Shown: piece by piece, positions 29,791 to 32,700 of the stretch | Layout of the letters: each line of letters starts with the position of its first letter | How positions within the stretch are numbered: the stretch's first letter is position 1 | DNA from: Armatimonadota bacterium | GTDB taxonomy: Bacteria > Armatimonadota > SYMT01 | Reading direction: 5' to 3' | DNA: 64,000 nucleotides | NCBI GenBank assembly: GCA_046292385.1 | Contig: JBKBRF010000004.1 | Span: forward strand, 245,212 to 309,211 | Program-made: the position numbers

Positions 29791-32700
29791 GATCGCCGGG
29801 AAGAGCAGCGTGCCGGCCTCTTCCATCTGGTAGAGCCGGTGCACGCCGGTGGTCGTCTCCTCGCTCACGCCCTTCAGGTCGGCGGCCACCTTCGTCCAGC
29901 GGTCCGGGCTCGCCGACAGCTCGGCGCGGAGCAGGTCGAGGATCACGCCCCACTCTTCCGGATCGTTCTCCGGATCGAACTCCGGCACGCGGCCGGCCGC
30001 CTCGAACTCGACGCCCTTGTGGATCAGCAGGGTGGCGTCGCCGCCGTCATCCACGATCAGGTTCGGTCCCGTGCCGTCCGGCCAGAGGAGCGCCTCGTTG
30101 GTGCACCACCAGTACTCCTCCAGCGTCTCGCCCTTCCAGGCGAAGACGGGAGTGCCCTTCGGGTTCTCCGGCGTGCCGCCCCACTCCGGGCGACCGACGA
30201 CGACCGCCGAGGCGGCGTGGTCCTGGGTGGAGAAGATGTTGCAGGAAACCCAGCGGACGTCCGCCCCCAGCTCTACCAGCGTCTCGATCAGCACGGCGGT
30301 CTGCACCGTCATGTGCAGGCTCCCCATGATCTTGGCGCCGGCGAGCGGCCGCTGCCCCGCGTGGCGGGTGCGGAGCGCCATCAGGCCGGGCATCTCCTGC
30401 TCGGCGAGCTGGATCTCCTTGCGTCCCCACTCGTGCAGGGAGATATCGGCCACCTTGTATGCCGGGCGGCCGGCGGTGTTCGTCCCGCTGGACAGGTCGG
30501 GGCGCTCGAGAACGGTCGGACTCATCAGGATCTCCTTGGGCGTGCGTGCAAAGCCGGTGCGAACGGCTGAGAAAGCGATGTAACGAGATAGAAGTGCTAT
30601 CGACGCCGGGTTCGTGCCGACGCCGCGAAGAGAGCGGGCCCCCGCGCCTCCGGATCCGCCGGAAGCGGGTGGAAGCGGAGCGCCTCGAAGCCGGACTGGG
30701 TGAGATACCGCGAGAGCTGCGGCTCCGAAAAGCCGAGCCACACGTGGCCCATCTGCTGCTGATACTCCTCACGCTCGTGCGGCAGCATGTCGACGATCAG
30801 CAGCCGGCCTCCCGGCACGAGCGCCCGTCCCGCCTCGGCCAGGACTCGCGCGGGATCCGGAACATAGTGCAATACCAGCATCAGCACGGCGGCATCCAGC
30901 GCGCCGGTCTCTACCGGCAGCGCCTCCAGCTCGCCCTGACGCAGCTCTACGTTCGGCATCCCCTGCAGGCGGCCGCGGGCGCTCTCCAGCATCTCGCGAG
31001 AGCCGTCCACCGCGATCATCCGCCCCACGAACGGCGCCAGGACCTGGGAGACCTGCCCGGTGCCGCAGCCGAGGTCGCCGACCGTCCACTCGCTATCCAG
31101 CAGGCCGAGCAAGGCCCGCAGGTGGAATACCGAGCCGAACAGCTCCCCGCGCAGGCGGTCCCACTGGTCCGCCGTCGACGAAAAGAACTCCCGCGACTTC
31201 AGTCTTCGCTCCGAGAGCACGCCTTCCAGCCGCTGGTCGTCCTGACGCGCCGCGGCGGTCTCCGCCACCTGCGCGTCGACCAGGCTCCACAGCTCCTGCG
31301 CCTCGCCGGAAAGCTCGCCGGCCGCCATGCTGTAGAAGCGGCTGGTGCCGTCCCGCCGGGAAGCGACCCAGCCGTCGTCCAGCAGGGTCTTCAGGTGACG
31401 GCTCACGGTCGATTGCGGAAGCTGCAGCACCGCGCAGAGCTCCGAAACGGTCAGCTCCTGCCCGGCTAGCAGACGCAGCATGCGGCAGCGGATCGGGTCC
31501 GCCACCGCGAGCATGTGTCTCAGTATCGCCGGCTGACTCACGCCATCTCCATCCGTCTATCCGGATAGAGTGTTGCACAACTCCGTAGCGGTGTCAACTA
31601 CCGGCCGCCCGGGCCTCGAGCGCCGTCGCCCAAGAGCCTTCCGTCCGCTCTCGCGGCCCGGAGCCCGACCATGCGTTGGACCAGATCGACGGGGAGCGGC
31701 TGGTACAGTGGGAATTGGAGGGAGCCCCTGACGCTTGCTACTTCGTCTCGTCGCCACCTTCGTGGGTCCCGAGGCCCTGGGTAAGAGCAGCGCCGGCCGC
31801 GATAGCTCTTGCAGTTTCCCTCGCCCCGTGGTAGTATCCGTATGTCAAGTTCAGATTGAGTTCGTAGCGCATTACCGTTCGGAGTTCCAGGTCCGTCCTA
31901 CTAGTGCTTTACCGCACCGGGACGGGCTTTTTTGTTGCTTCTGTGACTAGGCTGCCGACGACCGCCTTCTGTTTGGGACCCCTTGTGGCTCGGGACGAGC
32001 CGCCTTTCTGCCGCGATCTCGAAACCTTCGAGACCGGAAGGATACACCATGAGCAAGCGATTATTCGTCGGCAACCTCTCGTTCAACACCTCCGAAGCAC
32101 AGCTTCAGACGACGTTCGCGCCGTATGGCTGCACCAGCGCCACGATCCCTACCGACTACGACGGGCGCGGCAAGGGCTTCGGCTTCGTGGACGTGAACGA
32201 TGACCAGATGGACGCGGCCATCTCGGCCGTCAACGGCCGCGACGTGGACGGGCGCACGCTGAATGTGAATGAGGCTCGCCCGCGCCCCGAGCGCAGCGGT
32301 GGTGGCAGCCGTGGCGGCGATCGCCAGGGTGGATACGGCGGCGGCAACCGCTGGTAAGCCGTCCGTAGAACTTCAGAGAAGGCACACGCGCTCGTCAGGC
32401 GCGTGTGCCTTCTCTGCGTTTCTGGTCTCGCAGGGTACTCAAGACGTAAGGAGAGGAACGATGTGGACTTACAATCGAGATGGGGAGCTCATCAACCTGG
32501 CGCAAGCGCTCAAGGTGGAGACCATGCACGACGACGCCCAGGTGGGCGGGGTCGATGGCAACTACGGCCTCTTCGCGCTGTTCCCGGTGGTCGAAGAGCA
32601 GGAGCTGGACCTGGAGCTAACGTCGGAGGACGCAGCGGCGGAGGGCTCTGCGCCGGGTCCCCGCTGGCGCGGCCGTGCGCTCGGCCAGAGTGCCTTCTAC

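Follow-up and report, generated by a model that had tools for sequence, protein, structure and literature searches.

A class-restricted leader RNA with the probable anatomy of a transcription attenuator ahead of RRM genes in Armatimonadota

In protein-controlled attenuators such as TRAP, PyrR and BglG/LicT, an RNA-binding protein restricts its own expression, or that of a regulon, by way of leader conformation and premature termination. The 5' UTR of cyanobacterial rbpA1, a long leader of an RRM gene, has reportedly been implicated in cold-regulated transcript level. Several bacterial lineages seem to use RRM-1 proteins in place of cold-shock proteins, and a recent Bacteroides study, which shows that these proteins repress their own genes, leaves the mechanism open (PMC13370968). 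At 21 C, the Bacteroides RRM-1 genes repress themselves and one another, in part via the 5' UTR, and deletion of all three causes 2.2- to 3-fold de-repression (PMC13370968); the rbpB mRNA bears a CLIP site of RbpB (PMC13370968; PMC11697453). Like the genome considered here, Bacteroides has single-domain RRM-1 paralogues (rbpA/B/C), one cold-shock-domain gene and long leaders, but no switch element is described for rbpA/B/C and the string 'terminat' is absent from the main text of PMC13370968.

Three other systems resemble the leader described here. E. coli deaD encodes an RNA remodeller that limits itself via leader conformation and premature termination (10.1101/2020.04.19.049098); there, however, Rho and mRNA decay act on an 838-nt leader, whereas an intrinsic-type hairpin no more than 90 nt from the start is found here. 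The guanidine-IV element (GGAM-1) likewise joins a 5' element to a terminator, and its pseudoknot is proposed to block the terminator, giving an ON switch (PMC7736828); it precedes other genes, there is no Rfam match here, and P1, the helix described below, would remove the upper terminator stem directly. Chlorobi-RRM (RF01697) is a leader found before several RRM genes of the same genome; its terminator-like hairpin holds GUGCYUU in the loop (PMC2864571).

The leader lies in a 64,000-nt stretch (G000:C4:245212-309211; 'the window', in which all coordinates below are counted) of a 7.04-Mb Armatimonadota genome with a G+C content of 69%. It sits in a gap of about 500 nt between a divergent ArsR-methyltransferase/ahcY unit and an RRM_1 gene, rbp, whose start codon is at 32049-32051. 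The Rbp protein scores 72.8 bits against NF058537 Rbp_regulator, which is under the cut-off of 100. The features are as follows.

31809..31814, plus strand: -35-like hexamer TTGCAG, 17 nt 5' of the -10 box, by sequence
31832..31837, plus strand: -10-like hexamer TAGTAT, by sequence
31845..31866, plus strand: tandem 11-mer repeat (consensus UCRAGUUCRKA, twice), from alignments; its 3' end overlaps P1
31864..31874, plus strand: 5' strand of P1, candidate antiterminator, GUAGCGCAUUA; pairs with the switch strand
31875..31884, plus strand: linker CCGUUCGGAG (CG...CGGA), conserved in alignments
31890..31899, plus strand: 5' arm of the lower terminator stem, from folding and a tree-aware test (p about 0.003)
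31902..31912, plus strand: switch strand UAGUGCUUUAC; partners are the P1 5' strand or, via GUGC, the downstream GCAC
31914..31917, plus strand: GCAC, 3' strand of the upper terminator stem, 85.2% paired (n=27); competes with P1
31919..31936, plus strand: terminator 3' arm, ending at 31928, followed by the U tract UUUUUUGUU, from folding
31985..32003, plus strand: middle hairpin GUGGCUC/GAGCCGC, with a conserved ACCC 5' of it and a GGG-rich loop
32006..32042, plus strand: SD-side hairpin; some of the SD-like GGAAGGA (32036-32042) is paired at its base
32049..32357, plus strand: rbp gene, 102 aa, a single RRM_1 domain (PF00076, E 7e-15) and a Gly/Arg-rich tail
32374..32416, plus strand: 19-bp hairpin past the rbp stop codon, from a terminator scan; probable transcript end of rbp

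The ArsR-HTH/methyltransferase fusion gene lies immediately 5' of ahcY (29023-31541, minus strand, divergent from rbp), and we take its product to be akin to SahR-type SAM-cycle regulators. An ORF for an acidic protein of 131 aa (32461-32856, plus strand) without a Pfam or NCBIfam match follows the rbp terminator, and the same stretch holds a tmRNA gene (21076-21431, minus strand) and a tRNA gene (38649-38720, plus strand). The genome has nine RRM genes and one cold-shock-domain gene. A DEAD-box helicase gene is divergent from one leader-bearing rbp gene (G000:C4:171222-173139) and another lies downstream of a second (G000:C31:18748-20740). Paired leader copies accompany tandem rbp genes (G000:C21:9917-11734) and, in a relative, divergent rbp genes (G004:C102:6319-7805); at L275 the pair includes a divergent core-only copy.

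The genome-wide survey's note had placed the beginning of the leader right after a -10 box, and a TANNNT box is indeed located 5-8 nt 5' of the motif in 23/25 leaders. TTG occupies the -35 position in 19/25, and TTGCAG of the window is not called as a -35 element by a strict scan with the E. coli consensus. Transcription would thus start at about 31844-31846. The 35-40 nt motif at the 5' end, described earlier as conserved and single-stranded, is conserved but not simply unpaired: residues 31864-31874, which make up its 3' half, could pair with the terminator loop (31902-31912). The tandem 11-mer repeat that it includes is a candidate RRM-binding site; a scan with its PWM gives more than 30 bits at five rbp leaders only.

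The 11-bp period at the start site would also suit a DNA operator, in which the first 22 nt, containing the 11-bp direct repeat GTTC-N7-GTTC, serve a transcription factor while what follows is a terminator of the ordinary kind. The spacing resembles that of the alphaproteobacterial LexA box. However, the next best PWM match, and thus the highest outside rbp leaders, is 21.3 bits; GTTC-N7-GTTC is not enriched (118, against 105-117 for N6, N9 and N10); and the PWM scan and the lexA upstream region reveal the motif neither at the lexA promoter, which by eye has GAAC-N4-GTTT-like palindromes instead, nor at other SOS genes, recA not having been inspected separately. An operator would also leave P1 and the core-only copies unexplained. 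A LexA-like operator is unlikely, and a DNA operator as the explanation of the whole arrangement appears very improbable, though the repeat by itself might serve as one.

The loop of the terminator contains UAGUGC, for which sequence comparison and folding reveal two mutually exclusive partners, GCAUUA upstream (forming P1) and GCAC downstream (Features above). The 5' leader contains an intrinsic terminator hairpin with a U tract, as expected of an attenuator, the tract being weak in some copies. The U-tailed hairpin reported before folds at -21.7 kcal/mol (z -4.0), and the reservation that it was seen per sequence only no longer holds. In 27 core sequences (20 ahead of RRM genes and 7 ahead of non-RRM genes; L037, L123 and L125 excluded), the terminator is 79.6% paired with two-sided changes in 10/14 pairs, values reached in 0/500 shuffles that ignore relatedness. 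Tree-aware tests on 32 sequences give 39/76 pair-keeping events for the lower stem against 27.8 expected (p 0.003) and 11/23 for the upper stem against 7.5 expected (p 0.04). The terminator is well supported by these comparisons.

In the 27 sequences, P1 is 79.4% paired with two-sided changes in 5/11 pairs; 2/500 shuffles, relatedness again ignored, reach this for pairing and 12/500 for score. RNAalifold on the same set returns the 5-bp P1 core as the sole consensus helix, its pairs per 27 being G-C 26+1, C-G 27, A-U 27, U.G 25+1 and U-A 22+2. In the tree-aware test on 32 sequences, pair-keeping events number 8/19 for this core against 5.2 expected (p 0.09), 9/29 for the outer four pairs against 9.6 (p 0.73) and 17/48 for the whole helix against 14.8 (p 0.31). 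As the helix-level tests of whole and outer P1 are not significant, the P1 strands could be conserved for other reasons. A crude tree-aware test of all pairs in 38 sequences finds no single pair significant, the best (E 2.1) being a terminator pair. The case for P1 is therefore built from near-invariant complementarity, a few telling substitutions and the predicted order of folding. As for the substitutions, P1 survives a C>U change in L020 as a G.U pair, the upper stem showing a compensatory U-A, L437 carries GCACG/CGUGC, and a second copy in L275 on which no model was trained retains GUAUU/AAUGC. The metagenome pattern used for locus finding fixed three P1 bases.

P1 and the lower stem have no bases in common, P1 covariation is weak and U tracts are often weak; all this would suit a leader without a transcription switch, in which, on the full-length mRNA, P1 and the lower stem make a pseudoknot or the two motifs bind proteins independently, and stability or translation is what is controlled. 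Against this stand the upper stem, which excludes P1 and is nevertheless kept up (85% pairing, p about 0.04, with the compensatory change in L020), and the U-rich tract that follows the hairpin in 27/33 copies. Post-transcriptional control of this kind is considered on balance doubtful as an account of the core.

Folding in silico is consistent with a switch instead. A window transcript ending at 31912 adopts the P1 fold and one ending at 31935 the terminator fold. Among 33 copies from a 42-row alignment (nine rows left out as duplicates, junk or degenerate), the truncated form has P1 in 28, the full-length form lacks it in 32, and both hold in 27, leaving 6/33 without a switch in silico. When the 5' part of the window leader is shuffled, the switch core pairs as well in 7.7% of 300 cases. 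At least five U in 8 nt are present in 27/33 copies and at least six in 17/33, and L001 is without a U tract. The P1 duplex of the window is worth -8.8 kcal/mol and is complete about 20 nt ahead of the U tract; the terminator state lies about 15 kcal/mol below the P1 state, and the barrier between the two is calculated to be some 12 kcal/mol at 37 C. The fold of the whole 225-nt leader is no better than that of shuffles (z -0.81). Two further pairings were dropped: CGGAAG with the CUUCUG that follows the U tract (33 copies, with a median p of 0.32 against shuffles) and a small CCG/CGG linker hairpin with weak support. In the earlier account of the anatomy, then, the terminator leader stands and the candidate antiterminator pairing P1 had been missed. 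On the strength of sequence comparison and modelling, we regard the anatomy of a transcription attenuator as the likely one.

The computed barrier from P1 to the terminator is higher in the cold (25 RT at 10 C, against 19 RT at 37 C), a trend generic to helices and calculated with no control, and would agree with an intrinsic cold sensor that needs no protein, slow strand displacement in the cold trapping P1 and causing read-through. Genes for rbp and DEAD-box helicases are cold-induced in other bacteria (PMC1484253; PMC13370968). However, the equilibrium probability of P1 is flat and hardly shifts from 10 to 45 C, and a pure thermometer needs neither an invariant sequence nor a tandem repeat. 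Cold slows transcription elongation too, which counts further against this explanation and makes it distinctly improbable.

In the 3' half of the leader, the covariation reported before for the middle hairpin (5/7 pairs two-sided in 15 leaders) is borne out in 23 leaders, with 88.6% pairing and 4/7 pairs two-sided. A pseudoknot between ACCC and the GGG-containing loop is conceivable but gained no support: it is 82.6% paired with no two-sided change, cognate and non-cognate combinations do not differ (p 0.79; shuffled p 0.13), and it is broken in L020 and L037. The hairpin beside the SD, also reported before, has a z of -2.4 in the window, and at 15 and 37 C the SD has a median predicted accessibility of about 0.27 (24 leaders), a value not set against shuffles. 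The two hairpins probably add translational or stability control.

For the distribution of the leader, two covariance models were used: R1, trained on RRM leaders only, and R2, a core model trained on seven non-RRM copies besides. The leader precedes six of the nine RRM_1 genes of G000, in agreement with the claim that most of them carry it, and the weak sixth copy (C21:11640-11734) scores 48.9 bits with a model trained on that copy. In the class of eight genomes, 18/29 RRM genes have an R2 match; three of these (L122, L123, L029) score below the 27-bit noise level, yet at the expected place. The six RRM genes of the class that make up the mostly MGKRLYVGNLPY type are without the leader. Its presence in six class relatives, as claimed earlier, is clear in four (G004-G007) and weak in G002 (22.6 bits); no copy scores in G001, where the leader is degenerate by eye, and G003 has no RRM match. 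In L118, L119, L128 and L029 the leader is degenerate, with promoter and 3' half retained and the switch lost. A pattern scan of metagenomes yielded 31 loci, namely nine leaders and 22 chance matches without RRM; the nine comprise seven distinct leaders with an RRM gene behind and two cut duplicates. Another pattern scan was swamped by coding-sequence matches, with RRM at 3/120 loci. Eight named records have the same leader with an RRM protein 63-83% identical, five labelled Armatimonadota, two Actinomycetes and one uncultured bacterium.

RNA-library contigs of close relatives from three studies cover the leader at 31878-32075 (X2, nine differences), 31870-32020 (X3) and 31927-32093 (X4), and those of a fourth study cover it from 31954. 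Such assembled contigs give no strand, ends or level and may derive from DNA, so that they are a weak hint of expression, and the edges of cover (31870, 32361) are not evidence for transcript ends. X2 crosses the terminator into the ORF, as would be expected if control were exerted on the full-length mRNA.

The leader had been tied to RRM genes alone, a restriction that does not hold: the core also lies ahead of about 12 non-RRM genes in relatives. R1 matches precede a pentapeptide-repeat gene (L436, E 6e-12), two YtkA/FixH-like genes (L449 and L451, E 0.08 and 0.16), a Usp gene (L433), an ECF sigma gene (L437) and genes without assigned family (L441, L442). A full-length copy in G005 (L443) lies 413 nt 5' of an RhlE-like DEAD-box helicase gene, with a degenerate switch and a complete 3' half. 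Among copies on which R2 was not trained, L482 scores 37.5 bits and a second, divergent copy in L275 39 bits; L464 (29.8 bits) and L483 (28.0 bits, by eye before a paralogue of the L436 gene) are near noise. In G000, no non-rbp copy rises above noise, and the six rbp copies are the only ones. The tandem repeat is missing from most non-RRM copies, so that the switch core is a separable module, and the copies ahead of non-RRM genes show this core to be a regulatory module in common use, not a site for autoregulation alone. Two genera have a near-identical subfamily of core-only copies (L433, L437, L449 and L451 in G006; L441 and L442 in G005), and the G006 copies are located amid efflux, cupredoxin, YtkA and DUF302 genes; this setting may indicate a mobile or metal-related cluster.

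Such copies raise the question of an orphan riboswitch, in which P1 and the CG...CGGA linker would form a pocket and a ligand (an ion, a metabolite or a second messenger) would stabilise P1 and block the terminator, switching the genes on. The P1 core is near-invariant with a conserved U.G pair, the linker holds an invariant G, and the core stands alone before the Usp and pentapeptide genes, the YtkA/FixH-like genes beside a cupredoxin gene and the ECF sigma gene beside efflux genes. Several non-homologous genes thus lie downstream, and the criteria used for GGAM-1 include multiple non-homologous downstream genes and a pseudoknot (PMC7736828). However, the core is confined to one class, with no convincing match in 143 other Armatimonadota and 453 genomes of three phyla, it has few invariant unpaired nucleotides, and its downstream genes have no common metabolic theme; in G000 they are rbp genes exclusively. 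A riboswitch is considered unlikely.

The limits of the family are as follows. R1 at E<=0.01 with strict filters matches 0/143 sampled genomes of other Armatimonadota classes. In these and the 453 genomes of Planctomycetota, Acidobacteriota and Chloroflexota, R2 gives matches of 19-27 bits only, and the inspected ones lack the anatomy; the matches in the three phyla set the noise level at 20-27 bits. Within the other Armatimonadota classes, 16 genomes have R2 matches of 19-25 bits, and of the 15 loci inspected all but L506 lack the combined anatomy. L506, where a terminator within a tRNA-like gene cluster shows a partial likeness, was counted as chance, and L484 (20.2 bits, by eye before a probable Zn-dependent dehydrogenase gene) is within noise. 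At 99 RRM loci of other classes and phyla, R2 nowhere exceeds 14.9 bits. Further Armatimonadota families carry, judging by eye, distinct conserved RRM leaders of their own without an R2 match (f8: L024, L130-L133; f3: L010, L011, L034, L035; f7: L014, L015; also L021, L027). A covariance-model search with Rfam 15 finds no match over the leaders, as stated before, and the literature searched contains no earlier description and no RRM-controlled attenuator, although ncRNA-motif catalogues outside Rfam may hold one. The original proposal of a new cis-regulatory leader with a terminator is supported. The class-restricted, undescribed leader family is considered real.

The closest described family shares GUGCUUU in the loop of a terminator-like hairpin 5' of an RRM gene, but the first 5' hairpin of RF01697, with CCAAUGGUUGG, is absent from the leader alignment here, and the tandem repeat and the middle hairpin are found here and not in Chlorobi-RRM. 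RF01697 (gathering threshold 45 bits) has no match at E<=10 on the nine RRM loci of G000 and none at E<=5 on nine further loci; three Chlorobi controls score 61-86 bits. By sequence, the leader is not a member of Chlorobi-RRM. The loop partner differs too: it lies beyond the U tract in Chlorobi and ahead of the terminator here. Across 42 distinct Chlorobi leaders (from 45 RRM loci among 120 pattern matches), complementarity joins the loop to a conserved AAWGCAC, with 90.2% pairing and 3/8 pairs two-sided (0/500 shuffles). This AAWGCAC is situated just past the U tract, outside the published structure (L306-L421; for example L306:594-691, L308, L309), and the pairing is a candidate pseudoknot about 20 nt 5' of the start codon. 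Because the partner is downstream of the U tract, the Chlorobi pairing cannot be an antiterminator, which lends some weight to control in the full-length mRNA here as well. The short GUGC helix recurs in Chlorobi in reversed topology, be it by homology, convergence or chance.

In the attenuator favoured here, whose decision would be kinetic as in established attenuators, P1 would form first during transcription, remove the stem that nucleates the terminator and loop out the terminator 5' arm. If P1 lasts for about 20 nt, until past the U tract, the gene would be transcribed; displacement of P1 would instead let the terminator, which is more stable, end the RNA near 31935. RRM proteins might favour termination by binding the tandem repeat overlapping P1 or, acting as RNA chaperones, by melting the weak helix, resulting in negative feedback on the paralogues and co-regulated genes. 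With little free RRM protein, or with slow refolding as in the cold, P1 would persist and the genes would be on. This trigger is favoured because the second repeat unit overlaps P1, because nine RRM genes accompany a single cold-shock-domain gene, a ratio like that of Bacteroides, and because of the RRM-1 de-repression and DeaD precedents cited above. The copy before the RhlE-like helicase gene in G005, the DEAD helicase genes beside two leader-bearing rbp genes and the higher barrier computed at 10 C also speak for the model. Counting against it, most non-RRM copies are without the tandem repeat, and the Usp, YtkA, pentapeptide and unassigned genes are not obvious cold-shock genes. By analogy, autoregulation or cold control is plausible; that RRM proteins, probably in connection with cold, flip the terminator choice is put forward tentatively, with somewhat less than even confidence, and so is the whole model of an attenuator with an RRM trigger.

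A bolder proposal, possible but rather doubtful, is that bacterial RRM proteins are attenuation factors and that the switch senses free RRM protein or RNA-refolding capacity for a regulon of rbp paralogues, a DEAD-box helicase and stress genes, the GUGC:GCA(U/C) helix being a cross-phylum RRM recognition element; its alternative bold form is a new riboswitch class, which the leader would represent if a small molecule flips it. The Chlorobi loop:AAWGCAC pairing suggests a pseudoknot missing from Rfam RF01697. Terminator/antiterminator switching of the leader, together with a small regulon, is probable. With 90 nt that can be mutated, predicted ON and OFF folds, natural compensatory variants and a candidate binding repeat, this compact element would make the mechanism of RRM self-repression testable in vitro.
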